From assembly GCA_048213135.1 (NCBI GenBank), contig PS015178.1:57950-93175 (forward strand): 35,226 nt of DNA. The letters are read 5' to 3'. Positions within the stretch are counted from its first letter, which is position 1; every line of letters starts with the position of its first letter. The translations under genes and the position numbers were made by a program. The DNA comes from Reclinomonas americana ATCC 50394 (Eukaryota). The notes under the pieces are model-generated. The model was not told the DNA's origin, searched no databases, and was given only the letters and a program-made list of their open reading frames with translations. Of the stretch, positions 3,249 to 34,069 are shown piece after piece.

Positions 3249-6200
3249 ATGAGTGACGCGTCCCCGACACGCGGCTCGCCTTCTCCAGGCAAGCGCCTGG
3301 TGAAACGCAAGAAGCTCGTGCGGCGTCGCGTCTCCGGCGCCACCGACGACTCACAGTCACCTCCGCCTCCTCCCACAACAACAACATCAGCCACAGACGA
3401 CACCACCAGTGGCGCACGCAAGCTGCAACGCACTCGTCCTCCATCGCTGCAGCAACCATCGTCAGAGCCGCGCGTGCAAGTCTCGTTGCAAGGCGTGGTG
3501 CGTCAAAGTGTGGTGTGTGTGATTGGCCATGAGCTTCGGACGCGCGCTCACTCTCTCTCTCTCTCTCTCTCTCTCTCAGGTCTCCACTCCCGGTGGCTCT
3601 CTGATCAAGAGCTCTGCGCGCGATGAGACGCTCCCGTACAAGCGCACCTCGCTGGCTGCGCTCACGCCCTCCATCTATGGCTCACAGTCGTCGTCGTCAT
3701 CACGCGCTGCTGGCAAGTCGGCTTCTTCCTCTGCTGCTGCTGCTGCGTCGTCTGCGGATGAGGATGAGGGTGCGCGTGCTCGCGGCGGCGCGCGGAAGCA
3801 GCGTGGTAGCGGTGATGGTGGTGGTGGATCGAGTGGAGGTGGTGCGGGTGGAAGCAGCTGGGAGAGCAGTGGTGATGATACGCTGAATGACATTGGTGCG
3901 GATGCGTGTGTGTGTGCGTGTGCGTGTGTGTGGGGGGGCTGATTGTCTGTTTGTGTGGGGTCTTGATCTTTCATTCTCGTTCTCTCCGTCGTTTGTCTTC
4001 ACTCATTCGCACCGTGCTCTCTGTGCCGTTCTCTCTTCCTTGCGCTCACTGTCCCTCTCTTGGTGTGTTCTTGGTGACGAGTACGAGATTTAGGCGTCGG
4101 ATAAGTCGTCACCGGAGTCCGACATAGTCGTTGAATGGGTCTCGCATTCTTTGTCTCACTCACACGCATGCTCTCCAACTCTTCCCTGTCTCTCCCTTGT
4201 TCTCCCTCGTCCTCTCTTCGTGCGTCCTTGGTGACGATTGAGTAGTTTAGGCGTTGGATAAGTCGTCACCTGAGTCCGACATAGTTGGATTGAGTGCACC
4301 TCCTCTTTCTCGCTCTCCTTCCCCACTCTCTCACCATCTCTCTCTCTTTCATTTGCGCACAGCCAACGAGATTGTGGACGCGGCGCTCGTGCAAGGATGG
4401 GATCCGACATCGGCGTCCAAGGATCGCCCGTTTGATTTGGTGTCGGCGGAGGGACTGCTGTCGTTGTGCCATCGTGTGGAGCGCCTGTTGGCGCGCGAGC
4501 CCACGGTGGTCGAGCTGCCGGTGCCGTGCAAGGTACGAGTGTCCCCTTGGGCCACACGCATGATTGCTCTCTGCTCACTCTTGCTGGTGTGTGCGTAGAT
4601 CTTTGGCGATGTGCACGGGCAGATTGTGGACCTCCTCGACCTGTTCGCGACGTTTGGCCGGCCCAACACCATGAATGGCGACATGGGCTTTGTCAACTAC
4701 CTCTTCCTCGGCAACTACGTTGGTCGCGGCTGCTACTCGCTGGAGGTCATTACGCTGCTGCTGGCCATCAAGGCGTTGCATCCGCACAAGGTGTGCCTGC
4801 TGCGCGGCGCACACGAGGACGCACACGTCAACGAGGTAACTTTTCAACTGGTTCCCTCCACGCGTGTGCGCGCCGGCTGCTCATTTCTTCTCATTCTGTG
4901 TAGGAGGATGGCTTCTTGGGCGAGTGCACCACGCGCCTCGGTGCCGACAAGGGTCGTGCCGTGTGGGAGCGTCTCAACGAGTTGTTCGAGTGGTTCCCGC
5001 TCGGCTGCCGAGTGGCCGACGAGATCTTTGCGGTGCATGCCGGCATTGGTCGCTCCATCACCGACACGCAACAGCTGGCGGCCATCAAGAAGCCGATTCG
5101 TGCTCCCAACGGACCAATCATGAACGACACGGAGCGCGTCGTGTTTGACGCGCTGTGGAGCGATCCAACTGGTGTGTGTGTGTTTCTCAATCATTTTCTC
5201 GCTGAGTGGGGCAGTATCCCATCGATGCGGTTTTTGTCTCTGCATGCCTGTCACTGTTTCTTCACTCGTCTTCCTTCTCGCTCTCCCTCCCCCCTCCTCC
5301 CTCTCCGTTTCCGTCTCCCTCTCTCTCTCTCCCTCTCCCCTTCCCTCTCCCTCTCCCCTTCCCCTTTCTTTCTCCCTCTCCTTCTCGCTCTCCCTCTCCT
5401 TCTCCCTCTCCTTCTCCTTCTCTCTCCTTCCCCCTTTCCTCCCTCTCCTTCTCCCTCTCTTTCTCCCTCCCTTCCCCTTTCCTCCTTCCCCCTTTCCCCC
5501 TCCCTTCCCCTTTTCCTCCTTCTTCTTCACCCCTCTCATCACCCGCGTGTCACAGAAACCGACCGCCTCGTCGGCACATTCCACAACCCGCGTCGCGCCG
5601 GCAACGAGTACATTGTGTACGGCATTGACCGCTCCAAGGAGTTTTGCGAGAAGAACTCGCTGCGGCTCATTGTGCGCAGCCACGAGTGTGTCGATGGTGA
5701 GTCGTCGCCGCACTACGCGCTCTCTCTCTCCCTTCTCTCCCCGCGCGGCTTCTGACTGTCTCCCCGCAGCCGGCTTTGAGTTCTGCTCCCGCGGTCTCGT
5801 GCTGACGCTGTTCACGGCTAGCAACTACGGCAACCGGTATCCCAACAACTCGGCGCAGTTGGACGTCATCCGCAACCGCGTCACTGGCAAGCTCGAGATG
5901 CGCGCCAACGTGCTCGAGCCGCGCAAGGCGGCGCCTGGCAGCGCACCGCTGTGGGATGTTGCGTGTGTATATGCTTGTCTGTGTACTGTGTATTGTGAAA
6001 TGGCGTTTTGCTAAATGCACGCCTCCCACGACACAGATGTCCGTGCGTCGCCCGCCGACTCCCCCGCGTGGACACACGGAGGACTCGCCGCGCTACGTGT
6101 TCCGCGAGCCGCAGGAGTCGCGGCGCTCGGTGACCGAGTCCATGCTGGCCGGCCCGCCCACGTCGGTGCCGGGCTCTCCGATTGGTGGCGACTCGGGTCC

Positions 6201-9200
6201 AGTTGCGTTTCTCATCATCTCTCTTAAAGTCTCTCTTCTGTCCTCGCTGACCTCACACTCTCCTCCAGGGCTCTGCTCGCGGCCGCCCACGCGACCGTGC
6301 CTGCTGGTCCTACGACCTGACGTACCCGCCACCGGCACCTGAGTCGCTGGCACTCGAGTGGACACCAACGCAGTCGCCGCGCTCGTCGCGAAGCACGCCG
6401 CAGAGCAGTGCGAGCTCCATTCAGACGCACGACGCTTCGAATGGCGTCGGACCGAGTGGCGCCGCCAATGGCCACAAGCTGCGCACGCAGACCAATGGCG
6501 ACCATCCCGCCCACCGCACCTCCTCGGGCACGCTCACCAAGGAGATGCGTGCCATGTTTACCAAGCCGCAGCCGCAATCACCGGTGGTCCCTCCGCTGGC
6601 GACGGCCACGGCGGCGGCCCTGGCGCAGACTCCGGGCACACCCGGTGGCCCGAACTCGCCGGCCACCAATTTCGATTCGCCGGCGTCGACGGCCTCCGCA
6701 GACAGCTCCAGCGACATTGACATGCGCACCGCGCTCAAGTTCCTCAGCGAGGCCGGCGTCACGCTGGAGATGGTGCGCGACGCTCGGCGCATATTCCGAC
6801 TGGCGGCCGGTGCGAAGCGCGACGATCCGGTGCGCACCTCGGAGCTTCGTCTGGACGAGGCCACGGTGACTCGCATCCTGGTCAAGTACGGCGTGAGCCA
6901 CCGGTACGGACGGCAGTACTTCAAGGCCTTTGATCGCGAGAAGAACGGACGCGTTAACTTCCAGAACTTCCTCGTGGCACTGGTGGCCATGGACCCCTCC
7001 ACTCCGCACAAGCTCAATTCGGTGACTGGCGACTTGCGCCTGACGTTTGTGTTTGACACGTACCGCCCGAAGGGTTTGTTTGACTGTTTTCTTTCAGTCT
7101 CGCCGTGTTTGTTGCTGGCTCACTCACCTGCTGCCTTTGCTCATCCTGCAGGCGTGAATTATGTCGAATACCACGGCTTGCGTCACTTGGTTCGACACAT
7201 TCTGCGTGCGTCGCTCGACGAGGCATCGTCGGATGTGGTGGAGCATGAAGTAGAGGCGCTCATCACCGGCCTGCAACGGCAAACTGGCGCACCCACTCGC
7301 GAGGTTTGCTGTGCATGCAGCGATGCTTGGTGAATTGTGTGACACTCATCTGCTCAAATCGTCGCAGCTGTTCTACCTTGACGAGTTCAAGGAGGCGATT
7401 CGCAAGGGCCTCCTCAGTGGCACCACTCACCTCTTCCGACTGATCAAGTCACCATTCCGCACTCGCAACAAGCCACCACACGCGGGCGAGAGCGAGTCGC
7501 GGCCAGTGTCGCGACCCATCACCCCCGGACAGTTGCGTCGCACCACAAGTCACCAACTGATTTCGCTCATCAACTCACTCTTACTCTCTCTGCAGAGTTC
7601 CGGATCTTTCACCACGCTCCAGTGCCTCATCACTGCGTGGTGCCGACGGGCAGGCGCCACACACGCCGCGCACGTTGGACTTTTATGAGAGCGAGCGCGA
7701 ACGAATTCAGGCCACAAGGTTGACGGAGGACGTTTTCAGCGACACGTTTGACGAGGGCCTGCAGCGTCGCGCCTCCTCGATGATCATGTCGCCCATGTCG
7801 TCGGGCTCGTCCCGCATGCCCATGTCACCCACTGGCAGCTCTCCACCGCCGTGGCCACCGGCGAGTAACAAGACCAAGGAGGGCTACCGTATCCCACTGC
7901 CGCCGCAGCGCGCGTTGCCGTCCAAGCCAGACTTTGAGGAGCTGATGCCATCGCCACGCACGCGCGCCATTCTCGATGCGCCCGCTTCACCGCGTGGCAC
8001 ATCACCGAGCCCGACCAGTCCGTTTGCCGCCAGCCCGCCTTCCGGCTCTGGGCTGCCGGGTCTGCTGGATTCACCACGCGGTGTCACGTCCCCGACCACC
8101 CGTGCGCAGATGCCGTTCTCGACTGCAAATGCTGCCGTCTCCCGTTCCGGCATCCCGGCATTCGGCAGTGGCGTCACGGGTGTGGCGCCTCCCATTTCGC
8201 CTCGTGGTCTGCCCTCGGTGGCCGCTCCGCCACTGTCCCCTCGCGGTGTACCGCCCGCCGCCGCGGTGCTGCTGCCGAATGCCGGAGCACCGCTCTCACC
8301 ACGCGGCGTGTCGCCGCACGCCATGGCCGCTCTGCCAGTGGTGCCGCTGTCGCCGCGATCGGTACCCACGACGACGCCAGTGCGAGCAAATGCATTCCCC
8401 GCACTGCTGCCGTCGCCTCGTGGGGCACCGTCAGCCGCACCAGAGGGTGCTGTGGCAGCCGTGGTGGCGCCGCCGCTGCCCAAGTTGCCGCCGACAATGC
8501 CGTGCCCAACCGGCGTACCTGCGTCGCCACCGACCCCGCCGCCACAGCGAGGTTGGTTATTAGTCATCTTTGTGTTTTTATCTCTTGTTGGAAACTCACA
8601 TGTCGNNNNNNNNNNNNNNNNNNNNNNNNNNNNNNNNNNNNNNNNNNNNNNNNNNNNNNNNNNNNNNNNNNNNNNNNNNNCACGCTGCGCAGCCACTCCG
8701 CCATCGCCGCGTGACTCGCCACGCTCACCGCGTGATTCACCACGCGGTCAAACGGCCCGCGAGATTCTGGCCAAGCTGGGTACGGCGGCACCGGCACTGC
8801 CGACGGCGTCGATGCCAGCACTCCCCATGCCGCGCACTCTGCCGGCGGCGACACGCACGACCAGCCAACCGCTGGTGCCCAGCCAGTCGTCGTCACAGCC
8901 AATGCAGCCGGTGGCACGCGCTGTCTCGGAGAACCTCAACACGAGGGTGTTTGGCGTCGACCCGGCGCTGACACATCGTGTGCCTTACACGGGTTCGGAT
9001 TCGAGTGCACTTGATGTGTGTGTGNNNNNNNNNNNNNNNNNNNNNNNNNNNNNNNNNNNNNNNNNNNNNNNNNNNNNNNNNNNNNNNNNNNNNNNNNNNN
9101 NNNNNNNNNNNNNNNNNNNNNNNNNNNNNNNNNNNNNNNNNNNNNNNNNNNNNNNNNNNNNNNNNNNNNNNNNNNNNNNNNNNNNNNNNNNNNNNNNNNN

Positions 9201-9845
9201 NNNNNNNNNNCGTGTGTTTGCGTATCTCACATTGCAGTTCGCAGACTCTATCATGGTACCGCAGGCCCTGATGCTGTTATTCAAGTTCCTGCAAGGCATC
9301 AAGGGGTTCGCGCAAGAAAAGATCTTCCAGTGTGAGGCGCCCAATCGCGAAGAGTACGAGACCACCAAGGCCGTGCTCGACCGTGGCTCGAAGCGTCTGC
9401 CGTGCCAGTTGGTGCACACGGCGGCGGCCCTCATCAAGGCCTACTTCAAGGAGCTGCCTGTCAAGCTGCTCCCGCTGACTGTGGCCGACCTCGATAGTTG
9501 CGCGCGCAAGAAAGAAATAGTGGGAAAGCTTCGCTTTGCTGACTTGTGCCTGCAGACATGGACCCGGAGAGCATGGAAGCGGCGGAGCGCGTTGTACGCA
9601 GCCTTCCGCCTGTGTCGCAGGATCTGTTGTTGTGGTTGCTCGACGTGCTGGGCATGGTCGCCGAGGAGTACGATTCCTCAAGAATGGACTCGAGCACTCT
9701 CGGCTACGTGATGGCACCGTCGCTGGTCGAGTGCCGTACCCTCGTCGAGCGCGACGTGGTGACGGTCGTCAACAAGACCGGAAGCCTGATTGGCACAATG
9801 ATCCGCTGGCGTGCGCTGACCGCCTACAGCAAGCTTGTCAGATAA
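3249..9845 (+). CDS. Multidomain protein: PPKL/BSU1-like PPP-family (pseudo)phosphatase, EF-hand-like pair, Pro/Ser-rich SPR-repeat linker, RhoGAP-like domain
   Basis: ATG 3249, TAA 9843-9845, with phase-consistent GT-AG introns throughout; both N-gaps fall inside introns. PPP motifs: IFGDVHGQ, YLFLGNYVGRG, LRGAHE, VHAGIGRSI, LWSDP, IVRSHECV, LFTASNY. EF-hand-like loop: FKAFDREKNGRVNFQNF. RhoGAP signatures: VFGV, EKIFQ, AALIKAYFKELP, SRMDSSTLGYVMAPSL. Confidence 0.8.
4070..4284. repeat. Two copies (4070-4127 and 4227-4284) of a ~58-nt self-complementary element inside intron 2 of the phosphatase-fusion gene
   Basis: CTTGGTGACGA...TTTAGGCGTYGGATAAGTCGTCACCKGAGTCCGACATAG occurs twice at an offset of 157 nt. 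Confidence 0.85.
5268..5536. repeat. Polypyrimidine (CT-rich) low-complexity tract in an intron
   Basis: Almost pure C/T sequence between the SDPT donor (about 5172) and the CACAG acceptor (about 5555). Confidence 0.9.
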
Positions 9846-10289: not shown

Positions 10290-10819
10290 CTATGCGCGAC
10301 CACCCGTAATGTCGGTGAGTCGCACGCCACGCCGCCTGCTGGTGTCGTCGGCCGATTCCAGCTTGGCCAGTGCCTTGAAGGTGGCCTTCACGACATTCAA
10401 CTGCGTGCGGCGTCCCACAATCTTGGAATTCAGATCCTGAATGCCCAGCACCTGCCACAAACGCGATGTAAGCACCAACCCTCGCCAACCCACTCCATCA
10501 CGAGGCTCTGACGCAACACCACAAATGGCAGCAACCGCGCGCTGCGCCTTGATGCCGGAGGCAGGCTTGGCCGGGCGTAGCTTCACCTTGGTCTCAATGT
10601 ACTCGGCGTCGACCTCGTACGCAATGGTTCGGTTCTCGTAGCGATCGACAAAGCGCAGATTGCGGAACAAGTGCAAGCAGGCGCGACCCACTGCGGACTC
10701 GGCGTCCTCGCCCTACGGGAGAGAAGGGGGAAGGTATTGAGGATTGAAGGGGAAGGAATAGGAGAGAAGAAGGGTATGACTAGATGTTCTCTGTCTCTCT
10801 CTGTATGCATGCATGAATG

Positions 10820-10856
<37 letters not shown>

Positions 10857-11773
10857 CTCATTCTTGCTCTCTTCTATTCCTATTTCCGCTGCGTCCCACT
10901 TCACTCTGTGTATGCACGTTCTTTATTGAGAGAGTGTGTGCCCGCCTGTATGACTTGCCTTGCGCTCCTCCACCATCTCCTCCCTCTTCCGCTCCCCCCT
11001 TCTGTCTGTCTGTCTCAGTCTCGCTCTTTTTCTCCTCTTTCTCTCTCTCTCTCATTCTGCCTGTCTAACTGTCTCAGTCTTGCTGCCTTCCATTCCACTG
11101 TCTCCCTTTTCTGCAGCCTCTCTCTCTCCTCTCTCTGCATGTACGTTTGCTTGTTTAAATGTGCGTGCCTGTCGGTCTGTGCCCTCTTCCACACACACTC
11201 TCTCTCCCTCTCCCTCTGAGAGGGTGTACATACGTTTGTTTTGGTGTCTGTCTGTCTCCGCCTTGCTCTTTTCCCTCCTCCTGATCTCATACTCTCCCAC
11301 TTTCTCTCTTCGCACCTTGCCAAATCCAAATCCACCAAGCCCATTGTTGTTGCCACCGACAATGACCGCATTGGCGCTCATCACACGGCCGCCGCGCTCG
11401 ACCTTGGTCACGCGATTGATCTCCACCACACGAATCTCGCTGATCGGGTGCTCCAGCTGCGTGTGCTGCTGGTGATGCTCCAGTGCACGCTGCGCCACGC
11501 GCAACACGTGCTCGTCAATCGCCGCCTGCTGCTGCTGTGCGTCGTTCGCCACATCGTCGCTGTCGTCCTCGACAGCCGAGGATGATGATGATGATGAAGG
11601 GACCTGGTGCAACGGGAGGGATGAGAGGGGGGAGGAGGGAAGAGAGAGAGATAGAACAGCATGCGAGAGAGAGAGAGAGAATGAGAGAATGAGACCAATG
11701 ACTGGCGCTTGGTGGAAACGTTAGGAACGTGAGAGAGTAAGAATGAATGCACTGTGCCTAACGGGAAGAGAGG

Positions 11774-11818
<45 letters not shown>

Positions 11819-12319: not shown

Positions 12320-12405
12320 CTCACACACACACACACACACAAACACACAGAGAGACTGAGAGAGAGGACGCGCAAGAGGACACACTGTCGATTTTGTGTG
12401 TGTGA

Positions 12406-15063
12406 ATGCAGTGCAATGGGCTGCACCTTGCGCGACTGCCTGCACAGTGGCGTGTGCATGACTCCTCTGCTGCTCTCTCACTGCCACTGTGTGTGCAAGT
12501 GACAACAGAAGAGTTGCGCGCACTCATTGACACACACACATACGTGCCTCTCTGTCTCTGCCTGCAGCCTCTCTGGCCTGTGCAAGTCATGCTTGCAGAC
12601 TGTTATCAGNNNNNNNNNNNNNNNNNNNNCTCTCTCTTCTTCTCTCTTCCCCTTCTTCTTCTTCTTCTTGTTCTTCTTCCTCTTCTTCTTCTTCCTCTTG
12701 TTCTTCTCATTCTTCCTCTTCTCCTCCTCCTTCTCCTCCTTCTTTCTCTCTTCTTCTGCTTCTTCCCTTTGCCTTTCATCTTTCTCTTCCTTTGCTCACT
12801 TGTCTCTCTCTCGCAAACAGGGACGCCTTCCTGCGCGTTTCCATGCATCTGCAAGCACGACGCAGTGGAAGCTGCGGCAGTGTGCGCTGGCTGCAACAGC
12901 GCGTGGCACTTGTCAGTCGCTCAGTGCAAGGTTTCCACTGCTGTTGTTCTCTCTTGTTGTACACTGTTGTGTTGCTCACTGTGCGTTCATAGCGACCTCG
13001 GGTCAAGCAGTCGACTCGTTCTCATCGTCTGCGGTTGGCGCTGGCTCCTCGTCGGCCTCTGCTGTGGAGGCAGTCGAGGAGATTGGTGGCGCACAGTGTC
13101 TCTTGCGCTATGTTGCGTCCGACGACATCCTGCCGCAGTTGTCGCGTCTCGATGCTCATTGTGCTGTGACAGTTTGTCGGGGATCGCCCATCGTTGCACT
13201 GGTATGCAGCACACCTATGCTATCGCGCTGTTGAACACGATTCGCTGACTGTGCCTCCCGTAGGATGGCATGTCTGGCGCCGCTCGAGGGCACCTTCTTC
13301 CTCTTTGAGTTCCTCGGCAGTGAGCATGTGTACCACGAGCAGGAGCGCGACTTGGTGGCGTTTTTCCGCACGGCGACGGTCGATGTGGATGTGCTGGCGA
13401 CGTGTGCGGGAGCGGTGCCGGCGCAGAGTTGCGGAGACACGTTGTTGAGCATGTGCGTGAGTCAGTGGTGCTGATCCCGTGTGCGCGCGACAGTGTCCAC
13501 GGTGTGCGTCTACTCGTCGGTGGCCGACAAGTTCCAGATTCAAGTGCCGTCACTGTGGACGGTGAATGCGGAGACTGCGGCTGAAGCAGGTCCGATTGGC
13601 GATGTGTTTGCGTGTGAGGTGCGTTCTTGTCGATCCACGTGACATACATGATTGCGCGCTGCCCACTCACGTTGGTGCAGCTGAGGTCGGGTGTGGAGAT
13701 CACGGTCGGCCGCCTGTCGACGACGCTGTCGGACGACTTGCCACCTGGGTCGGCGTTGGTTTGTCGATCGGAACCCTTGTGTATCACTCCATCCCCAAGT
13801 CAGCCGACCTCACCTCCCTTCCGAATTTGCATGCAGGATGAGATTGTGATGCAGTGCATGACGGATTTCGAGGGCTTCGAGTTCCGACATGCAGAGCAGA
13901 TTGCGTGGTTTGCGGGCCGCCCCGACTCGTACTATATCACCGGAGCACTGGTACGGGAAATAAGGTGCTCGTGGGATTCCTCTCACGCTGACCTTGGAAT
14001 GCATCCACAGATCCCCGGCAAGACACTGTCGCTGTGGTGCACGCTGCGAGGGTGGGGTGCGTTGTGGTATGTCGCGTACTCGGCACACATTGCGTACTTT
14101 GAAGAATTTGCGCCGATCGCCGAGGCCGCGGCCATGTCATTCGCGTTCCTGGACGACGATGGTTGGCTCGCTTCCAACTGATTTGTGTTTTTTGTGCGAG
14201 CGACTTATTTGTGCAGCAGCCTCACGACCCATCAAGTACGAGAGAAAGGTCGCGCCCGCATTCACTCTCTCCGTTCCCGACGGCTTCACAGTGCTGGAGG
14301 CTGGCACTGGTCTCCTTGGCATGGATGAGGACGACGACGATGGTGCCGATGACCTCGCTAGGATGACTGTTGCGTGCGCTCGTCTCCCCCCCTCTTCAGT
14401 CACGCCGTTCGTTCACCGCGCTGCAGGATCCGTGCCACCTGGTCTCCTTTCTTGGCAACCTGCTGCTGCCATCTGCCGGCGTCATCTCGGTGCGTGTGTT
14501 TGTGCTGGCCTGTGCGTGTTTTTTTGTTGCTCAATCGTGATGCACCACAGGTCTCGCAAATTCTGCTGTTGGACGGCACGGTGCCGGCGGCAGGCGACGA
14601 TCATGTGACGGCGGCGATGAATGTGGCGGCCAGACACGTGTCGCAGCAAGGTGGCGTGCGTGAGGTGGCGCGCGTGGCTGCGTCGGAGATTCGCGGCTTT
14701 GATTTTGAGGTTTCGTCTGCTTGGTGATGGCGGTGATGGTCTTCGTTGTTCATGGTTCACCCGCAGCTCAAGTTTGCCAGTGCCCCCCATCACTCGACGC
14801 TTGTGCTGGTGAGTTTTGTTGCACCAGAGATGCAGACGTGTACTCGGACCTCACGCTTCTCATTTTCCGCTCAGGGAGCATTCTCCGGAGATCACAAGAC
14901 GCTGCTGCTCGTGCAGTACTCGGCAGATGAAGTTGCGTGCATCTCTCTCTCTTTGTGCTGGAGTCCCGTCGTGAACTCACTCCCTTCCTTGCAGAGCGCC
15001 CAAATGCTCAGCGAAGACGCGATAAGAGAACAGTCGCTGAGCACGTTTGCTTGGAGTGAATAA
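12406..15063 (+). CDS. Multi-exon hypothetical protein, possibly with tandem PsbP/Mog1/DcrB-like alpha/beta repeats
   Basis: Phase-consistent exon chain, e.g. AQCLLRY|FVGDRPSLHW|MACLAPLEGTFFLFEF and ARMT|DPCHLVSF...|VSQILLLDG...ADE|SAQMLSEDAIREQSLSTFAWSE*. The 5' exons and start codon are uncertain because of the gap at 12610-12629. The fold call is pattern inference only. Confidence 0.6.
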
Positions 15064-15133
15064 TAACAGTGCATTAGTTCTTCTTCTTCTTCTTCTTGGT
15101 TGCCTTCAAAACACTGTGCAGACAGCTAGCTCC

Positions 15134-19258: not shown

Positions 19259-19282
19259 AAGTAATGCAAAAGTGTACAGTGC

Positions 19283-22115: not shown

Positions 22116-23427
22116 TCAAGACGGCACATCCAAGTGGCGAGGCAGCGCGTCAGCAGTCGCCGGCAGCCCTGGAGGCACCACCAGAAGCCACGTCCAGTAC
22201 CGCGAACCAAACACTTGCTTGTAGTTCTCCACCCACGACCTCGGCGGCTGACAATCCCACGAGCGCCTTCGGCCGTCGGACTCACCCGCCTCGCGCAAGC
22301 GGTTCATCTCACCGGTCGTGAGATCGTGCGCCAGCATGTGCAAGTGTCGGCGCAGGAACATGCACACCACGCACGCCAGAGACAGCGTGAGGAGTTCCAC
22401 CAGCAGCACGTTCACCAGGCGACCCGGATTAATGAGTCGACGGTGACGGCTGACACGCTGCGTTCGGCGCGTGAGACACATCACAGATGCACATACATAC
22501 ACACTGTGTCGACTCACCTGCCCGTGCAGCACATCGACCAAGTCCGGCAGCAGCGTCACCGCCATCCACACCGTGGTCACTTGCACGTAAAACACCAGCA
22601 GCACAAAGTACTTGTGGTTGAACAGGCCGACACAGTTGCCGATCCAGAAGCAGTGGTGATCGTAGCGCACACTGCACACGTCACAGTGTCGACAGTGATG
22701 TGTGCGCGCACGCTTGATCTCGTGGCAGCGCACACACAGCGTGCTGATCGGCTGCCCGTTCATCATCTTTTTGTGAAAGTGCTCGGCCAGCTTGCAATCG
22801 TCAATCAGCACATCGTGCAGCTGCTCCATGCGCTCGACCACCGTCGACCCTGCCGCCTCCTTGGCCGCGCCCACCTCCGCATCCAGCACCGCCAGCGGCT
22901 CGCCCGGCAACATGTTGCGCACCTTGGCATACGCGCGATCCAGCGTGCTGATCAAATCAAAATGCGGCGGCCTTCCCGGCGACATCCACGCCGACATGAC
23001 ATACGCCAGCTCCAGCGATCCCACCAGCAGCACCGTGATCACCGAGCGCGCAATCGTCCAGCCCTACCTCACCACGAGCACATGAGGAGACAGCAACATG
23101 AGAAAGGGAGGAAAGAGGATGTGGTTTGCCGCAACTCTCCACGTCGTGCTCGGATGCGCGTACCACGACGGAATGATGCCCTCCACCACATACACCACTG
23201 TGCAGTACACAATCGCCGCCTGTGCCAGTGACATGAAGGCCACGTTTTGCAGCGGGAACAGGCGCTCTCTGCAGACACCAGACACCAGTCAGTGTCTCTT
23301 CCTTTTTCTCACACTCTCAGTTGTCTTACCGCTGCGGGAGGAGGCCTATTGGAGGATACGAGCTCGGCCTCGGCTTCTTCTTGTGCTCCTTCTCATCGTC
23401 GTCGTCGTCGTCTCCGCCGCCCTTCAT
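22116..23427 (-). CDS. DHHC palmitoyltransferase (copy 2)
   Basis: CVRCHEIKRARTHHCRHCDVCSVRYDHHCFWIGNCVGLFNHKYF, SPG, DLTTGE and NYKQVFG motifs. Exon 1 is MKGGGDDDDDDEK...PPIGLLPQR from ATG 23427 with a CG|GTAAGA donor. Confidence 0.9.
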
Positions 23428-24230: not shown

Positions 24231-27200
24231 TCTCTCTGTTGGTGCTCATGTGTGTGTGTGTGAATGCACGCAGAGTTTGTGGATCGCGCGGCTGAAGTGA
24301 GTGGCGATGAGGAGGAAGATGACGAGGAGGACGAGGAGGAGGAGGAGATGACGGCCAAGGATCGTGAGTTTATCGGTGAGTGCAAACCTGCATTGTGCAT
24401 CTCTCTCTCCCTGCGCGCGCGCGTGTGTGTGTGTTGTCTTTTGCGCGCGTGTGTGTGGCATGTCGACTCTGACATCGACGACAACTCACACACACGCACA
24501 CGCGCAGCTGGTGCTTCGTCGTCGTCGGGAGGAGGTGCAGGCGCGATGCAACGAAAGCGACGACGTGCACTCTCTGACGATGAGGAAGGCAACGATGACG
24601 AGGAAGGGGCGCAGCCGTCTGCAAAGGATGGCGAGGAAGAGGAGGACGAGGAGGAGGATGAAGAGGATGAGGATGAGGAAGAGGAGGAGGAGGATGACGA
24701 GGACGGGGAGCCGCAGAAGAAGCGTCGACGCATCGTCTCGGGTCGCAAGCTGAAGCAGCGCAAGGAGGAGTTTATGGCCGAGTTGCAGAATCTGCAGGAT
24801 GTTGCGTGCGCAGCAGCAAAGCTCTTCCTTCTCCTCTCCCGCTGTGCACTCACTGACACGAGCGCGTGCATGTGCAGGATGCGGTGCGATCGTCGAGTGA
24901 CGAGGCGGGTGGCTACTCGGACGAGGAGAAGTCCAAGGCCTCGTCGCAGCGCAAGAAGAAGAGGAGAAGAAAGGAGCATGCGGAGGCGGGCGGTGGTGCA
25001 GGTGGTGCCCGTGCCGGCAGTGACGATGAGGAGGCGGTGGATGCGCTGGTTGCGAAGAAGAAAAAGAAGAAGAAGAAGCTGTCGGTCGTGGACGAGCTGG
25101 AGGAGATGGGCGAGGAAGACGACGACGTGATGCGGTTACCAGAGGATGTGTACGTTGTCCTCCTATGGCTCCCTTCTTTGAGTGCCGAAACGGGGGATAG
25201 CTGATGCGAATTGTCGTGCAGGGGTGGCGGCGACAAGCGACTGACGTCGGTGTTTGGAGATGCGGATCTGCTGGCCGACATGTTGCCGCCCGACGAAGGC
25301 ATGGAGGAGGGTCAGTATGGCGACGCGGAGGCTGGATTCGATGTGTACAGCCGCCTCCTGCAGCGCTTTGAGCCCGCCGAGCTCGCCGAGCGTCATCTCA
25401 CCGACGAAGATGCCGTCATTCTCCACCAGGACATTCCCGAGGAGCTGCAGGTGAGCCAGCGAGTGTCTTTTTCTCTTGTGCCGACCTCACACATACTCAA
25501 TTGTCGTGTGCTCGGTTCCAGGTGCGTCTGCGTCGCCGGCCGCCACCCTCACAAGCGGAGCTGGAGGAGGAGACACGGTGGATCTACCGCACGTATTTCG
25601 AGACGGACGCCTCGACACGCGCCTACGAGGGATTCGGCATTGACGATCCGCGGTACGGCATGTCGTACGCCGAACTCAAGATCAAGGCCATTCGTGCGTG
25701 CCTGGTGGGCATGCTGTGCGAGCACCTGGAGCCGGGTTTCTTGTGGATGTACCGCCGCGATGACTTTCCAGACGGCACACTGGTTCGCCGGGTTCACGCA
25801 CACGTCGTCACTCACTGGGAGATGCTGTTTTGCTCACTGCGATCTGTGTTGTTTTTTCTTGGGCAGACCGCGGTCGATGTGTGGCGTCTGCTGGATTATG
25901 ATGAAATCTGGGTGCGACAGGCCAGGAAGCTGGCCTCGTTGCGTTCGGTGGTGGAAGCCTACAAGGCCGACGAGGCGCGTGCAGTGGACACGGACGAGCA
26001 GAAGGCGTTCTTGGAGGCGTTTGAGCGACTGGTGCTGCGAGCCGTGGAGGAGGGTGCGAAGGAGGCCGAGGTCGAAGACATGTTTTCGTACTGGCAAATC
26101 ATGACCACTGTGGGCGAGGCCAAGTCGCTGGTCCGGCGTGACGAGTACCATCGATTGGTTCGCGTCGGTTTCAACGAGTACATTGCCAAGTTGCGCTTGA
26201 ACGTGCACGAGTACCTCGACACCATTATGAATGCCGGTGTGCCCGAGTCTATTGAGGTGCGTTGCTATGTGCGTGACAGTGTTGGCTTCTTGCCTCTCTG
26301 ACTGTGTGTCGTGATTGCGCGCCGCAGCCCTACCACTTGGATCCGGTGGAGTTTGTGTCGCAAGAGTGCGAGCCACTGCTGTTCTCGCTGGAGACGTTGA
26401 CAACGGAGGATGCGGTGCTGGCCGGCATTCGCAAGGTGGTGGCCACTCGCATTGCGCACGAGCCGGAGTTGCGACGCCGCATGCGTGATGCGTTGCGCGA
26501 CTCGGCCGTGGTGTCCACCCAGCCGACGGAGAAGGGCGACAAGACGATTGACGTGTTCCATCCGGACGCCAATGTCAAGCGCATTGTCAACAAGCCGGTG
26601 TACAGATTCTTGCGCGATCAGGACGACGTGCACTTCTTGCACATGGTGGTGGCGGAGAAGCGTGGACACATTGAGATTGACATTCGAGACGAGGAGCCGG
26701 AGAAGACGATGCAGAGGGTGCGTGCGCAGCATGCATGTGCGCGGTTGCTGTCGCGCTGTATATTTTGATGTTGACAAATGTGTCGCTCGCAGGTACTGCA
26801 ACCCGAGTGCTTCCTCATTGACAGCCACTCTGCACTCGCCACGGCATGGAACGAGCAGCGCCGTCTCATTCTGCAGGATGTGCAGGAGATGTTGTATGAG
26901 GCGTGCATTCCGGAGATTCGCTCCGAGTTGCTAAAGGTCGCCGAGGACAATGCCATGGATTTGTGTGCGCGCAAGCTGCGCAATCTGGTGTACCATCGTG
27001 GATTCGTGCCCCCCGGCTACAATCCCAACGACGCGTCGGGTCTGTTACTCATGCACGGGTCCTGTGTCGCCGGTGCAGGAACTGATTTGTTCTGTGACAG
27101 ATCCATGGTTCTTGGTGGCCTGCGTGTACCAAGATGCCAACAACCCCATTCACTTTGTCAAGGTCACCATGGAAGGCGATGTTGCGTTTGACGCGTGTTG

Positions 27201-30200
27201 TTTTCTTTCCGTCATCGTTGTTGTCTGTGTGTACCGACCTGGCGATTGTTGTTGTTCAGTATGTGGATTCGCTGGTGTGGGGCCTGCGCGACATGGCGGG
27301 CGGCATGCGCTCCGTCGAGTACACGCGAGATATGGAGAGCCAGCATCACACCCTCGCCATGTGGCTGCAGGAGGGCAATGTGCGCGGCCTGGTGGTCGGT
27401 GTGCGTGACCAGACGGTACGACGGCTGCTCGGCGAGCTGCGCAAGCTGATTGACGAGTCCGCCGACCTCAAAGACCACGTGACGCTGATCGACATGGACG
27501 AGGATATTGCAAAGTTGTACGAAGCCGGCGAACTGGCCACAAATGAGTATCCCGACTGGACCGACTCGAATGGTCTGGCCAAGAGGTTTGTTGATGGGAG
27601 CAGGGGTGGGCGATTTGAAATTGTGTGCGGGCACGTGCTAATGGTGATGCAGACGGTGCTTGTCGCTCGCACGACGAGTGCTGGAGCCACTGTGGGAGTT
27701 CTCCTGCCTGTTCAACACCAACAAGGACATTCTCAAAGTGCACATGCACACGTTCCAGTCGGCAGTTGTGTCTCTGCAGCCTTCCTCAATTCATGCAAGA
27801 TCGAGCTCCTCAACTCTCTTCTGTGCAGTTGCCGCAAGACCGTCTCATGATGCGTCTGCGAGAGGAGATGCGCATTGTGACTGCCACGGTTGGTGTGCGT
27901 GTGAACATTGTGATTCATCGACCGCACGCGTGGCCAGTGTTGCAATTCGTCGCCGGCTTGGGACCCCGCAAGGCGCCCGATCTGGTGGTGCAATTGCAGA
28001 AGCTGGAGGTGCGTCTCTTAGAGTGACTCACTTGTGTGTGCCTGCCACTGCTCACATTCACGCACAACAGGGAGGCTGCTTGCAGTCGCGACACCAGCTG
28101 CTGCAGCTGGTGGGCGAGGTGGTTTTCAACAATGCGGCTGGTTTCCTGTTTGTGACGCTGGACGACGAGGAGGGCAGTGGTGGATGTTGCGGCACGCATC
28201 ATTGTCTTTTGCTGCGCGCTCTCGCTTATCTTGTCTCTTCTCTCCCCCTCTCTCTCACACGCGACAGCGCTGGTGGAGCGGAGTCGCATCCATCCCGAAT
28301 TCTACCCGCTGGCCATCAAAATCGCCGTCGACGCTCTCGACCAGGAGGTCTCACCGGACCCGATTTTGCGCATGCAAGAGTACTATCAGCGTCACATGAC
28401 GTTTGCCGAGTTGCTCGACTCGGATGGCCTCGACCCGCTGCTCAACTACGTGGACGACCTGAAGCGACGCAATCTGAGTGCGGAGACACTCTTCCCCGCT
28501 GGTTTGTGTTGGATGGAGGGAAAGGGATGTGTTGCGAGATGAGCATGCGCTTGACGAATGCTCTGTGAATGCAGCTCAAATCGAGAAGCTGGGCATGTGT
28601 GCGAGCGAGTACGTCGAACGGAGTGTGCCGTTCAGCAAGGAGCGCACTGTCACTGCGTTGGCGGGTTCGTGTGTGGCCCCCGTCTTGATCATTTCAGTTT
28701 TCTTCATCCTTCTCACGCATTCATACAGCAGACCGAGGGAAAAATGTTGGCAATGGCAACGATGACGACGACCTCGGAGATGACTTGGACGATGCGGACG
28801 ACGACGATGATGAGATTGGCGACGACGAGTTGGCGGCCCTCGGCGGCAATGGCGATGACGCGTGCGTGCTCTTTCCTTGAGAGTATTCTCCTCGTGCATT
28901 CCTCATTCTTTTTGCTCAACGCGACAGTCAACTTGCTGAGGCTCGTGCGGCTCGTCAGCGAGAGCGTGAGGAGAGGCGGCGGCAGCGTGAAGCTCGACGT
29001 CAAAAGTTGCGCAACCACATGACCGCGCAGTGGTTGCGTCAGGCATCCCACACGTGTTGATTGACCGACGATCTTCTTGCAGACGACTGCTGGACAAGAC
29101 TCCGTTGCATGTGGTGATTATGCGCGGATCGATCATCAGTGCGGCGTTCTTGTGCCAGCGCGAAATCGATCATGCAGGGGAGGACGAACGACCGCCGTTT
29201 GCGGAGCCGACCATGGAGGAGCGATTCCGCATGCTGTTTGGTGACATTCCGGGCGTGACTCTGATGGAGGGCATGCCGGTGTTGGCCGAAGTCGTCCGAC
29301 GTTGCGTTGCTCTCATTCTTTCTCACGCACCTTTTCGTATTTACTCAATCTGTGTGCGCGCGCAGCGGCACAAACGGCCTCCGACTACAGCGACAACAAG
29401 GCCAGCAAAATCATCTGCCGACTCACCGACAACAGCTGTCCTGCCATCTACTTTGCCAACGACCCCACACCCGCCGAGTGCACACGTGGTTCGATTTTGG
29501 ATCTGTGTGTGGAGCGTATCGAGTTGCCGCAACCGTCTGTTGCGTGCCGCATTCGTCTTCTCCGCATCTGTTGTTGTGTTTTCGCGCTGGTTGACATCCG
29601 TGTCCAGGAACCATCCATGATGTTGGATATGGCGCGCGACGCGCCATGGTGGGATCGCATGCAAGTCAAATTGCAGACGAGAGACACTACGCGTGAGCGT
29701 GATGCATCGACGCGCAACTTTGACGAGTACCTGAGATTCACGGCACCGCCCGAGTATCGCGCCAGCTCCTCGACCAGTTGCGTATCGGCAAGAGAATGCA
29801 GCTGCTGTGCTGTGCGGCTGCTGATTGTGTTCCTGCAGCCAAGCGGTCGTCGCGCACCCTGGTCAGTCGCCCTATCAATCATCCGTTCTTCCGCAACTGG
29901 ACGTGGAGCGAGGCCAAGGAGCACTTGAAGGTGGATCATCCATTGTTGGGGCATTTTTCGGGTTTGTCGACTGACATGGTGACGTGATCACGCAGGATGC
30001 ACCGATTGGCGACCTGATCATCAGACCAAAGCCCGGCAACCATGCGCGCCTCTGCATCAGTTTCAAATTCTTCTCTGGTCTCGTCAGCAACATCGAGGTG
30101 GAGGAGAAAGACAAGCCCAATCCATTAGCACTCGGTCAGCGTTTGCTGCTGGACAAGCACGAGTTCGAGGATCTCGACGAAGTTGCGTGACCACGCACCA

Positions 30201-31281
30201 GTTGTGTGCGCCTCGCCGCGATGGCTCATCTCTCTTGGTTAGGTGTGCGAGCGTTACATTGCGCGTCTGATGACGACCGCACGCAAAATGGCCGAGCACC
30301 GCAAGTTTACCGATGCCACCGAGGAGAAGATTGAGGAGATGCTGCAGGCGGAGCTCCGTGCGAACCCGCGTGCCATCCCCTATCGCATTGCCGTGCATCG
30401 TGCCACCTACCGCTCGATGCATTTTGCCATTTACTACATGACACGGCACTCGTCGCTGATGCACAAGAGCGTCAAGCCGGCGCCGGAGGGTTTCTACTTC
30501 CGCAAGTCGCTGTTCAAGAAGCCGGAGGAGGTGATCAATGCCTTCAAGAAGGATCTGGAGGAGGAATTCCGCAAGGCACGCTCCAGTCGCAGTCAGCCGT
30601 CACCTGCTGGCGGCGGAAGCTCGCACGGCATGCCGATGCTGTCACCGCTGCAGTCGTACACCTCACCGCTGGTCAACGAATCACCTCGGTCGGGGTCAAG
30701 TGGCTCCGCCATCTCTACGCCACCCATGCACTCCAGTGCGTTGTCGTCATCGTCGTCGTCGATCGGCAAGCTTCGTGCGCATTGCGATACTCACCTCGTG
30801 CGTCTGTGTGTTTGCAGACTCGAGCATGGATCGCTGGATGTCGGCAGCGCGCGGAATCGCGCCTCCGATACCATCACCGAGTATGCACTCTGGTGTGTCG
30901 ACTCCTTCTCCGTTCGGCCGCCCCAGTGGCGGCGGCGCACCGCCACCACCACCACCACCGCCGCCACCATCGGGTGGCAGCTCGTTTTCGGCACCGCGAC
31001 CACCACCGTCGTCGTCGGGACGTGCGGTCGGCAGCTCACCAGCCCGCGATTCGTACGGAGGTGGGGGAGCTGGGGGTTACTACAACCAACCACCACCACC
31101 ACCACCACCACCACCGTCGTACCCGCAGCAGCCGTCACGATACGACAACAGTCCGTCGATGGCCACTCCACCACTTTATCAGTCGCCCAGCTCGGGAAGA
31201 CACGGTGCTCCGCCACCACCGCCTCCACCGCCGCCGCCGCCGCCTCCAGAGCGTGCTGACGACGATATGGAAATGGACTGA
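24142..31281 (+). CDS. SPT6: Transcription elongation factor / histone chaperone SPT6
   Basis: Micro first exon ATGG|GTGAGT (24142; duplicate at 23508) gives MEFVDRAAEVSGDEEE. Acidic N-terminus, then RFEPAELAERHLTDEDAVILHQDIPEELQ, AWNEQRRLIL, SLARRVLEPL, LQFVAGLGPRKA (HhH), SRIHPEFYPLAIKIAVDAL, an S1-like region, tandem SH2 (RPINHPFFRN, GDLIIRP, FEDLDEVCERYI) and a Pro/Ser-rich tail ending DDDMEMD*. Confidence 0.95.
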
Positions 31282-31377
31282 GCGAATGAGAGGGAGAATG
31301 AGAGGGAGGGGGCGGGAAGAGAAATGGTAGTGAAGTTGTCCTGCGTGTCACACGTCCAACTAAACGAACAAACAATC

Positions 31378-34069
31378 ATGCATTGGCAAACGCCACTTGC
31401 GTTCACGCTTCTGTTGGTGTTGCTGTCGGTGTTGCCGGCGCAGTATGCCGCAGGCACGGGAGGTGTGTGCGTGTCTGTGTGTACATCGCTCTCTCTCTCC
31501 CCTTCTGTCTCTCTCTCGCATTTCTCCTCACGGATGTGCAGTGTCAACACAGGTGACTGTCAATGTCGCCGCTGAGGCCTACGAGACTCGTGTGGTGGCA
31601 CCCGTTGCACTGGTTTGTGGCTTTTATGCGAGAGAAACCGAGAGACAACTGACGACGACGTGCATTCACGCGCGCAGTCTCCAGTGCCACCCATCCCTCT
31701 GCTCTTCCGATCCGTGCTGGTTGTCAGTGTGGTGTCGCCCAAGGTCATTCCGATCGCTTCACTCCCGCACACTTGCTTGCACCTGCATGCAACTCAATGC
31801 ACACACACAGATGGACCATCACAGCCTGCGCGACTTTGTCGGCGCTGTGCACCAGTGCAGCCTCCATCTGCAAGTGCTACTGGTGTCGTTTGAGCAGACT
31901 GGTGGTCGCCTGTCGGAGGCGTTGACTGGAGAGATCGGTGTCTGGGTCAACACCATGTATGTGCACGACGGGGAGACGAAATGGGACGAGGAGAACAGCG
32001 ATGCTGCGGGCTTCTGGTCGGCGTTGCAGGGTGTGGCGAGGCAGCACGCACCTGACAAGGATATGCTGTTCATGCAACCCTCGGTGCTGTTGCACAACTG
32101 CCCCATTCGCGGCGCCGAGATCCTCACTGGTGTCACTGCCAAGCCGCTGCCGGCCACGCGACCCCGCGCCTTCCCCTGGTTGCCACACACTGCATGGTAA
32201 CAGAAGCAGTGCCTTGAACAGACTGTGGCTGTGTCATGAACACTGATGTGCTGTGTTGTGTGCGCGCTTCAGGCTCCCCCTCAGTGGCCGTTCGGCAGCA
32301 AAGTGCCCGACCGGCCGTCGGTGTGATGGTGCCATGCTCTTTGTGGAGAATATGACACCGGCTGGTCGCTGCCACTTGGCGCTACACAATCGGGAACCCG
32401 TGCGGCAAACGACGCTTCTCGTCAACTATTCGCCGAGTGGTGCGGTGGAGGAGCGTGAGCATGTCGGTCAGCGCGACTCTGGCTCGGCAGCACCACGTCC
32501 CGAGGTGTGCGTGCTCATGCCGGCCTACCATCGCAACGTGTCGGTGCCGCTAATGGCAGGCGATCTGTTCCACACGTTCATGAATCAGGTTTGCACTTCT
32601 TCTTTGTTCTTCCTGGTGCGTGTGTGACGTGAGTTGTTGCAGACTGTTCCGGCGCTGTTGGAGGACGCTGACGGCTCCTACGACTTAGCATTCTACTGGG
32701 CCATGCACACAGACAATGTCCACCTGGAACACCCGGGGTTCCTGGAAGCTGCGCTGCTTGGCGAGGTTTGGTGGACAGAGAGCGAGAGAGTGACGAGGTG
32801 GATTGTGTTGCTTCCTGCTGACACTCGTCGATTGTCAGTTCCGCAAAGCGGTGATAGCGGCCAAGCGCGCCGATCTGGCCTTGCGCTACGTAACGTACAG
32901 AACGGCGCTGGGTGAGTTGTTGTGCGATATTTTTCGCCTTTGCCCACGGTGTCTCAATGAGCGCTGCAGGGCCGCCGAGCGACAACATTTACTATCCACG
33001 AAACCAGATGGCACCCGTTGCGCGAGTGGGAACAAGCATGCATCTCGCCATCTCTCCCATTCTCTCATCGCATAATGCACAGGCTGCCTTTCGTGATGGA
33101 TGTGCTTACTTTTTCGTGCGTACATTCCCCGCCTTGCTGTCGTAGGAGGTGTCCACGTCTCACGACAGTGGTGCACAGGTCACGGACAATGACGCAATCT
33201 ACACGAAACGTGGCTTCCTCAACGAGTTTTGTGTTGCTGTCGACCGCGGTAGGATTGTTGTCGACGACATACTCACTTTGCTGCACTTGCACAGGTGGGT
33301 ACAAACTCTGCGCTCGCGACTCGATTTCGGGGCGGTCGGAACTGGTTGGCAACGGCGCCTGTTCAACGCGTTCATGGTCCCCCGGTCGCACGTCGAGATC
33401 TTTGGTCATGTGAGTGCCTGTGATGACTGTGCGTGCTGTTCGCCTGCTGCTGCTCACTGTTGAGCGACTTCGCAGATATGGTCGCCGTTCTTCCACAACT
33501 GGTGCGGATGTCGCCAGCATGTTGTCATCCGTTTTGTTGCCACTCTCATCGTGAGCACGCACGCAGGGTTGGCGACGACTGGGCACAGCAAGTGTACGCC
33601 GACGACGACCGAGTGTGGACATCAGTGGCCGTGCACGGAAGCAACGAAACGACATACTGTTGCGCGCGACACGAGTTGCAATCAATGGCGTGCAAGGCAA
33701 TCTGTGCTCACATCGATGTGCACACAAACAGCGCACTGCGGCTCCCCGTACACCATTCGCGCCTTGCCGTGCACCGTTGAAATGTCGAGAAGAGCCATTG
33801 CACGATGGCTGCGGCAGAAGCAGCAATGGGCGGCACATCCGGCAGTGGCGTTGCGTTTTGAGTGTCTGTGAGAACGGGGAGCGATAGTGAGAATGACTCG
33901 TTCTTTTGGCTGCAGCGACTGGTTTGGCACCAAGCTACGCGTGTACGAAGTGGCCGTCGGCAAGGCCATGGCAGAGGACTGGTGTCTGACTGCTTTCCGC
34001 CATCACGTGAGCGCCATGGAAGTCTTCATGACGAATCCTCTCCTCGACAACACACCACCAGGCGTGTAA
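31378..34069 (+). CDS. Signal-peptide protein with C-terminal GT-A-fold glycosyltransferase-like domain
   Basis: N-terminal signal/anchor MHWQTPLAFTLLLVLLSVLPAQYAAG. Spliced C-terminal half: VCVLMPAY, DGCAYFFVTDND (DxD), DFGAVG, AFMVPRSHVEIFGHIWSPFFHNWVGDDWAQQVY, which fits a GT2-like nucleotide-sugar-binding layout. Stop TAA 34067-34069. Confidence 0.7.

Follow-up and report, generated by a model that had tools for sequence, protein, structure and literature searches.

In the textbook model of donor recognition by the U1 and U6 small nuclear RNAs (snRNAs), 5' splice sites lacking the G at the exon end and the G at +5 are near-dead sites. U12-type introns, typically less than 1% of introns, form a second class with a strict donor motif of its own beside the major class. 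Shifted-register 5' splice sites in human genes were reportedly described by Roca and Krainer in 2009, and to our knowledge the only documented cases of recognition displaced by one base are odd human sites, numbering between a few dozen and a few thousand. In the present work we consider a stretch of 35,226 bases of the genome of Reclinomonas americana ATCC 50394 (assembly GCA_048213135.1, contig PS015178.1, positions 57,950 to 93,175; hereafter the window), in which a second class of donor reading H/GTTGCG(T), where H is A, C or T and the slash marks the exon-intron junction, occurs beside the ordinary donors with G at +5.

With the human shifted-register sites these donors share a GU with a poor canonical match, a match to the U1 complement when slid by one base, and cleavage at the GU. 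They differ in that the human sites are rare and their slid sequence (e.g., ...UCAAGUAU, a melting oligonucleotide in the available portion of PMC4856993) pairs strongly with U1, whereas here about a third of the introns in the window are concerned, the slid UGCGU pairs weakly with canonical U1, and the -1 base is non-G and A-rich. Registers with a bulge or an asymmetric loop offer a second parallel, in that the motif can be written as a consensus donor to which a U has been added at +2/+3; they are rare in human, where the same portion of that paper gives 68 sites predicted for bulge +2/+3 and assigns 1.5% of 201,541 donors to the validated non-canonical registers taken together (PMC4856993), and the -1 composition found here argues against a simple bulge. 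A changed U1 could also match an atypical donor: the available text of bioRxiv 10.1101/2022.06.08.495308 gives co-evolved U1 5' ends for Entamoeba (ACAAAC with GUUUGU donors) and Mastigamoeba (ACGUAC with GUACGU), and a standard together with a modified U1 for Physarum. In these organisms, so far as that text goes, one donor type dominates, whereas in the window the same genes carry both types, in a ratio of about 5:3. U12-type introns account for 0.36% of the human complement in the portion of PMC4856993 at hand, and the variant class described here is far more frequent; unlike U12-type introns, its members do not show the RTATCCTT donor, and their branch site, length and acceptor are those of the ordinary class. 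Among the matches listed in a full-text literature search, GTTGCG or GUUGCG appeared as no donor class, only in primers and in unrelated uses.

The evidence consists of the window sequence (48-63% GC per 2-kb segment, with five masked runs of N) and of protein homology, and all counts refer to this window. Introns were called in two passes. The first was a donor-agnostic Viterbi gene finder whose only donor requirement was GT (GT..AG), with no donor model, with self-trained codon usage and, in later rounds, an acceptor, branch and length model taken from its own introns; a strict intron penalty was used, low-penalty runs having been set aside for over-prediction (130-147 introns per strand). 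For the second pass, donor matrices were derived from the first-pass introns and included in the model; its counts are therefore partly circular, and the agnostic counts are given alongside. This pass called 92 introns, 83 of them 45-140 nt long and in plausible genes. Donors with G at +5 were assigned to the ordinary class, and those with T at +3, G at +6 and a base other than G at +5 to the variant class.

The two strands together hold 51 copies of GTTGCG, compared with 34.8 +/- 5.5 after dinucleotide-preserving shuffling; none of 100 shuffles reached 51. All 22 GTTGCG donors named in the original prediction, as well as the six with related hexamers, are present where they had been placed, each with a CTSAY-like branch site and a YAG about 57-129 nt downstream. 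The agnostic pass returned 72 introns in the window and none in a reversed-sequence control. Its commonest donor hexamer was GTTGCG (17 of 72, against a background of 51 in 4525 GT sites; binomial p = 6e-18), followed by GTGCGT (8), and it recovered 14 of the 22 listed GTTGCG sites and three unlisted ones (13428, 18338, 28186). Sixteen of the 72 donors fell in neither class; most of these introns, at 94-288 nt, are long and seem to be errors of the model. In the second pass, where 20 of the 22 listed GTTGCG sites and all six related ones were recovered, the 83 introns comprised 50 ordinary, 31 variant and two of neither class. The GTTGCG(T) sites are confirmed as genuine GT-AG donors, and the abundant second class that had been proposed exists in the window, where it makes up about a third of the short introns (31 of 83).

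Twenty-three of the 51 GTTGCG occurrences are donors, preceded by A in 10 cases, T in 9, C in 4 and never by G; of the other 28, six follow a G and seven lie inside sense exons. GTTGCGT after C, at 18670 and 25938 on the + strand, likewise stands in sense exons and is unspliced in the models. Copies left unspliced inside exons indicate that the hexamer or the 7-mer alone is insufficient for splicing. A test on the 3' signal only was too blunt: 8 of 49 GTTGCG sites exceeded the 95th percentile (p = 0.003), and polypyrimidine hexamers did equally well.

Homology places eight variant donors exactly to the base, by way of Pfam S5_C and SH2_2, the human NAPE-PLD structure 4qn9, and profiles built for NAPE-PLD (82 of 99 homologues, those of 320-460 aa) and SPT6 (23 of 88 matches, those of 1130-1830 aa). 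For the junction scan each GT or GC donor was combined with each AG acceptor that kept the frame open and scored against the profile. The five protein motifs originally named as anchors for donors of the class, one in uS5, one in SPT6 and three in NAPE-PLD, all hold. The donor at 10517 belongs to the mitochondrial-type uS5 gene. Of the 65 residues encoded by the exon ending at 10518, residues 38-64 match positions 3-29 of the Ribosomal_S5_C profile, and the downstream exon begins at position 31, so that a single residue is left for a single profile position and there is no gap. The agnostic pass had here placed the donor at 10535, deleting 6 residues; 10517 and 15763 were the sites that this model misplaced by in-frame slips. 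In SPT6 the exon ending at 30181 stops at SH2_2 position 108, and residue 3 of the next exon corresponds to position 111, hence residue 1 to 109, so that the profile is contiguous across the donor at 30182. In NAPE-PLD, 4qn9 residues 314, 315 (the split codon) and 316 are contiguous across 15763; at 15893 residue 292 corresponds to residue 41 of 42 upstream, the Ile of the split codon to 294 and the following Gly to 295; and the exon downstream of 16800 begins at residue 161. An ordinary-looking donor, T/GTTTGTT at 16804 (- strand), lies 4 nt upstream of the homology-supported 16800 and out of frame with it; it might compete with that site or give rise to mis-splicing. Inside the RhoGAP domain the profile runs to 74 (about 80 by extrapolation) before the intron at 9497 and resumes at about 88-91, which is roughly contiguous. 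The SPT6 model spliced without donor information reaches 815 bits over profile positions 6-1344. The other variant junctions appear consistent with homology or lie beyond its reach.

The homologues themselves are distant. The closest named NAPE-PLD relatives come from fungi and animals, with an identity of at most 62% over part of a 79-aa exon, and the best identity for the SPT6 SH2 region is 39%. Searches for homologous proteins gave no match with the SPT6 C-terminal exon and none with the phosphatase exon at a strict cut-off of 1e-8, and a metagenome scan with the SPT6 SH2 exon gave 461 pattern matches, of which none was confirmed.

At the exon end the two classes separate sharply: G stands at -1 in 1 of 31 variant donors and 43 of 50 ordinary ones in the second pass (Fisher p = 2e-14), and in 1 of 22 and 24 of 34, respectively, in the agnostic pass (p = 9e-7). 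The rule that the class avoids an exon-terminal G holds accordingly in both passes, with G/GTTTCGT at 14710, called in the second pass only, as its single exception there; 30 of the 37 donors without G at -1 are variant. Within the intron, ordinary donors (n = 50) carry G at +3 in 31 cases, T at +6 in 33, and at +4 C in 21, T in 16, A in 12 and G in 1. Variant donors (n = 31) carry G at +4 in 27 cases, C at +5 in 26, G at +6 in all 31 and T at +7 in 21; T occupies +3 in every one, and no donor reading GTAGCG, GTCGCG or GTGGCG was called. The minor variants GTTGAG, GTTGTG, GTTTCG and GTTTTG equal the ordinary GTGAG, GTGTG, GTTCG and GTTTG with an inserted T. AA at +3/+4 looks almost absent among the ordinary donors, as counted by eye in the second-pass introns; this and their preference for C or T at +4 are the reverse of what pairing to U1 pseudouridines 5 and 6 would favour.

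The remaining intron signals are identical in the two classes. A YTNAY branch site is present in 27 of 31 variant and 45 of 50 ordinary introns, with the motifs CTCAC, CTCAT and CTGAC, CTCAC being the commonest in both; the median distance from branch to 3' splice site is 17 nt in the variant and 19 nt in the ordinary class, intron length 66 and 66.5 nt, intron GC content 0.535 and 0.534, and C precedes the acceptor AG (CAG) in 25 of 31 and 44 of 50. The comparison of branch points and lengths that had been suggested between the classes therefore revealed no difference, in so far as it was run within the window. The classes are also interleaved within genes (8 variant and 10 ordinary introns in SPT6, 5 and 10 in NAPE-PLD). 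The shared branch site, length, acceptor and base composition, together with this mixing, point to one U2-type system, and by these sequence signals the variant introns are U2-type GT-AG introns served by the same type of spliceosome as the ordinary ones.

A U12 identity, whose donor the original prediction had already noted not to match the motif, is indeed contradicted by both donors and branch motifs: RTATCCTT with at most one mismatch occurs 17 times in the window (12.8 +/- 3.8 expected) and at no variant donor, and the branch sites are as in ordinary introns; no search was aimed at the TCCTTAAC-like branch motif itself. One exact ATATCCTT, U12-donor-like, lies at 32057-32064 on the - strand, where only a + strand gene is modelled, and is within chance expectation. 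The intron classes of Micromonas and other Mamiellophyceae, with AG/GTGCGT donors and a branch point 43-52 nt upstream or, in BOC1 introns, no branch motif (according to the part of PMC3879977 available), were considered and rejected as a model, as were stwintrons, the introns here being single units of 57-82 nt.

The motif (A, T or C)/G-U-U-G-C-G-U is the ordinary (A)G/G-U-G-C-G-U moved one base into the intron. Under the ordinary donor matrix with the GT columns left out, variant donors fit only when slid one base (register +1, +4.1 nats), against -0.5 nats for register -1, -8.0 for register 0 and -8.2 for register +2; these scores follow in part from the class definition (G at +6), whereas the agreement at +4, +5, +7 and the exon positions does not. 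The original description of the class as register-shifted is supported: the motif is the ordinary one displaced by one base and matches better when slid by +1. The displacement includes the exon. The -1 base of the variant donors (n = 31) is A in 16 cases, T in 9, C in 5 and G in 1, where codon position would lead one to expect 4.8 A and 11.2 G (p = 3e-6 and 1.6e-5); the -2 base of ordinary donors (n = 50) is A in 21, T in 12, C in 9 and G in 8. Since the variant -1 is A-rich and G-poor, like the ordinary -2, a shifted register is favoured over a bulged U.

We infer that U1 is the reader of these sites. The early reader of the 5' splice site, the U1 small nuclear ribonucleoprotein (U1 snRNP), would bind them one base further in, in a shifted register: the first intron G would occupy the place of the ordinary exon-terminal G, the bases from U+3 to U+7 would take the places of the ordinary +2 to +6, and the last base of the exon would behave like the ordinary -2, while catalysis would still cut before the only available GU. 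Such binding is in our judgement a probable, if far from certain, explanation of the variant donors of otherwise ordinary U2-type introns. Of the two modes of recognition originally put forward, shifted or bulged, the exon-side composition at -1 supports the first and speaks against the second, and canonical U1 pairing accounts for the class in no register.

This last point is the main difficulty. With the 11-mer of the canonical U1 5' end, taken from the available portion of PMC4856993, duplexes were computed with RNAduplex and compared with 1117 exonic GT decoys. Ordinary donors paired at a mean of -6.2 kcal/mol, in the canonical register in 43 of 50 cases, and were well separated from the decoys (area under the curve, AUC, 0.865). 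Variant donors paired at a mean of -1.5 kcal/mol, weaker than the -2.65 of the decoys (AUC 0.33), and their best register was +1 in 15 of 31, which speaks for the shifted register, and another in the remaining 16, which speaks against it. Several further observations weigh in the same direction, against U1 binding in a shifted register: the almost invariant C at +5 (26 of 31) would stand opposite a pseudouridine of U1 and be unable to pair with it; U1 pairing alone fails to explain why donors of the H/GTTGCGT kind (30) so outnumber those of the H/GTGCGT type (7), given similar numbers of pairs; the avoidance of G at -1 exceeds what a G-U wobble predicts; and the second-pass counts come from matrices trained on the first pass. 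Standard U1 fits the ordinary class, and RNA pairing alone leaves the variant class unexplained. As the standard U1 5' end pairs so poorly, either proteins or later snRNAs would carry much of the recognition, or a U1 with a compensating 5' end would exist.

The latter option corresponds to a rather unlikely, though still serious, alternative, namely two parallel 5'-splice-site codes in one U2-type spliceosome, with standard U1 reading G/GUNNGU and a co-evolved U1 paralogue reading H/GUUGCGU. The 5' end of the paralogue would compensate for the U at the slid "+1". Among 33 single-base variants of the U1 11-mer, C8 to A served the variant class best (AUC 0.84, against 0.32 for the canonical sequence), as expected from position 8 facing U+2 in the shifted register; C8 to A is thus the best single-base candidate, as a prediction only. 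If two codes were in use, the identity of the U1 would set apart about a third of all introns as a group open to separate control. A hypothetical GC-adapted U1 of the ACGCACCU type was rejected, reaching an AUC of only 0.66 for the variant class and worsening that of the ordinary class to 0.77. In the part of bioRxiv 10.1101/2022.06.08.495308 available, Thecamonas and Micromonas have a standard U1 despite a preference for pyrimidines at +4, and the preference for C or T at +4 found here does not, therefore, by itself imply a changed U1. Rfam models at the gathering threshold gave no match in the window, hence no RNA gene and no snRNA there.

The bulged alternative, in which standard U1 and later U6 would pair canonically with GU and GCGU and leave the additional U at +3 (or +2) looped out, is improbable. 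The motif is indeed GTGCGT plus one T, pairing of U6 with GCGU would be kept, and one-nucleotide bulges at +2/+3 are a register validated in human cells, as the available portion of PMC4856993 reports. However, the -1 base would then face U1 C9 and G should stay favoured there, whereas G is found once in 31 donors and A is enriched, and contacts on both sides of the bulge that include a -1 G with C9 are not what the donors show. Moreover, a looped-out base need not be U, yet the other three bases were never found at +3 before GCG, and RNAduplex with the canonical U1 11-mer returned the mixed 0/+1 register expected of a bulge for none of the 31 variant donors.

We regard it as likewise improbable that the reader is not U1 at all, but a sequence-specific protein, or U6, U5 or the tri-snRNP recognising UGCG(U), the likeness to the ordinary motif being then incidental or historical. 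The failure of canonical U1 pairing to set variant donors above the decoys would suit such a reader, and so would the tightness of the variant +4 G, +5 C and +6 G, which exceeds that of the matching ordinary +3 G and +4 C (31 and 21 of 50). Yet the one-base displacement reaches into the exon, which a purely intronic reader would not predict, the other signals are common to both classes, and no candidate factor has been put forward.

It is very unlikely that the junctions were simply mis-called, the true event being a GC donor 3 nt downstream (GTT/GCG), a cut one base later, a nearby ordinary GT, or retention. The junctions rest here on sequence rather than on RNA and come from one window, which counts against U1 binding in a shifted register as well; second place in the scan usually falls to the GC donor three bases downstream, which scores above the GT at two poorly conserved sites, 28186 (50.4 against 47.3 bits) and 29777 (38.2 against 34.6 bits). 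Against this, at 10517, 30182, 15763 and 15893 the homologous numbering continues across the junction without skipping a residue, leaving no room for an extra Val; the GT outscores the GC three bases on at 16800, 15509, 27181 and 30182; and exons extended by GTT, as GC-AG introns would have them, were not what the alignments gave at these sites. A cut one base later (HG/UU...AGN/) was evaluated on 14 variant junctions of NAPE-PLD and SPT6, five of which give the same mRNA because the next exon starts with G; over the nine junctions with a changed residue it loses 11.5 bits, with Ile to Ser (-5.2) and Tyr to Asp (-4.1) among the losses. An ordinary-looking GT lies within 40 nt of only 7 of the 31 variant donors and is out of frame in all seven, and read-through runs into stop codons or frame breaks, in contrast to the 815 bits of the spliced SPT6 model. 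A sequencing error (GGT misread as GTT) was rejected on similar grounds, as it would shift the junction by one base and break frames confirmed by homology. That the class consists of introners, recently copied introns whose highly uniform first 7 bases are common by descent, can be virtually dismissed, since an all-against-all blastn-short comparison of 81 intron bodies gave only low-complexity matches of 9-22 nt, variant-variant pairs being not visibly commoner than others (as read from the listing, with no statistical test).

The variant-class introns are collected in Table 1 with two GTTGCG sites of the original prediction that entered neither model. One of these, at 13112, could be the donor of an intron in the 5' untranslated region (5'UTR). 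It lies in a spacer of about 1.5 kb (11730-13260), ORF-poor, CT/GA-rich and of low complexity, between the divergent uS5 gene and the gene that starts at 13265; the long frames of this spacer all have negative coding scores, and it holds a run of N at 12610-12629.

Table 1. Variant-class introns of the window and two further GTTGCG sites; positions are counted from the first base of the window, and ranks refer to the GT/GC..AG combinations of the junction scan.
Donor	Position	Strand	Length (nt)	Called in	Context and support
T/GTTGCGT	5958..6036	+	79	both passes	region not conserved
A/GTTGCGT	6202..6268	+	67	both passes	
A/GTTGCGT	7532..7595	+	64	both passes	
A/GTTGCGC	9497..9555	+	59	both passes	inside RhoGAP domain
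T/GTTGCGT	10452..10517	-	66	second pass	mitochondrial-type uS5; S5_C profile
A/GTTGCGG	13428..13493	+	66	both passes	absent from original list
T/GTTGCGT	14369..14426	+	58	both passes	
G/GTTTCGT	14710..14766	+	57	second pass only	candidate hybrid donor; sole variant-type donor with -1 G
A/GTTGCGT	14932..14994	+	63	second pass only	
A/GTTGCGT	15443..15509	-	67	both passes	NAPE-PLD; best of 71, 38.1 vs 34.3 bits
A/GTTTCGC	15697..15763	-	67		NAPE-PLD; best of 71, 97.1 vs 89.5 bits; 4qn9
A/GTTGAGC	15828..15893	-	66		NAPE-PLD; best of 15, 57.1 vs 35.4 bits; 4qn9
T/GTTGCGT	16732..16800	-	69		NAPE-PLD; best of 60, 96.1 vs 91.9 bits
C/GTTTCGT	17235..17311	-	77	both passes	
A/GTTGTGT	17991..18049	+	59	second pass only	
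A/GTTGCGC	18168..18237	+	70	second pass only	weak acceptor CAAG, 3' score 2.3
C/GTTGCGT	18338..18403	+	66	both passes	absent from original list
A/GTTGAGG	18943..19007	+	65	both passes	absent from original list
A/GTTGCGG	23064..23135	-	72	both passes	DHHC-type gene; flanking exons without Pfam match
T/GTTGCGT	24801..24877	+	77	both passes	SPT6 acidic unconserved region; homology scores <4 bits
T/GTTGCGT	27181..27259	+	79		SPT6; rank 1 of 135, 10.7 vs 5.5 bits
A/GTTGTGT	27765..27828	+	64		SPT6; rank 1 of 65, 66.2 vs 60.6 bits
T/GTTGCGG	28186..28267	+	82	both passes	SPT6; rank 7 of 88, 47.3 vs 50.4 bits; absent from original list
C/GTTGCGT	29301..29365	+	65	both passes	SPT6; rank 3 of 75
T/GTTGCGT	29539..29607	+	69	both passes	SPT6, unconserved; homology scores <0
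A/GTTGCGT	29777..29838	+	62	both passes	SPT6; rank 2 of 105, behind GC donor 3 nt downstream
A/GTTGCGT	30182..30242	+	61		SPT6 SH2 domain; SH2_2 108/109; rank 1 of 55, 84.7 vs 78.7 bits
C/GTTGCGC	33017..33145	+	129 in model	second pass only	acceptor uncertain
A/GTTTTGT	33226..33294	+	69	second pass only	
T/GTTGCGC	33659..33731	+	73	second pass only	
C/GTTGCGT	33850..33915	+	66	second pass only	
GTTGCG	13112..13117	+		neither model	original list; ORF-poor low-complexity spacer upstream of ATG 13265
GTTGCG	29006..29011	+		neither model	original list; SPT6 stretch without homologue alignment, between profile 924 and 951

Some of the gene models around these introns deserve comment. The stretch of SPT6 at 28502-29082 (+ strand), where the models put outlier introns of 227 and 221 nt around an acidic exon of 44 residues with no homologue alignment, contains three more GTTGCG (28531, 29006, 29033); the models are probably wrong in this stretch, and small exons may have been missed. 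The ORF at 11055-11720 (- strand), upstream of the S5_C exons, resembles, by eye, the N-terminal domain of S5, which we take to be of the double-stranded RNA-binding (dsRBD) type; if the resemblance is right, the uS5 gene spans about 10290-11720 with further introns, where the models began it at 10976. Two neighbouring genes on the - strand (22116-23427 and 20341-21454) are palmitoyltransferase-like of the DHHC type, the exon at 22518-22670 matching Pfam DHHC at 1.9e-14 and the DHHC motif of the second gene being seen by eye; the gene downstream of them (19283-20202, - strand) is either separate or fused, the first pass having joined it to the second DHHC gene. Finally, one long model at 3249-9845 (+ strand) combines a PPP-type phosphatase part, whose only protein-atlas match is "Metallophos, Eukaryota", a Pro/Ser-rich low-complexity region with two runs of N, and a Pfam RhoGAP domain, and may represent either a genuine fusion or separate genes that the model has run together.

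Donors of the shifted type are here a mainstream class beside ordinary donors in the same genes. In such a genome, gene finders with a single donor matrix would mis-annotate about a third of the introns. The two classes would also amount to a natural experiment on a large scale, bearing on how the place where U1 binds comes to be separated from the place of cleavage, on the respective shares of RNA pairing and proteins in the choice of a donor, and on whether introns can be split into classes by snRNA paralogues.

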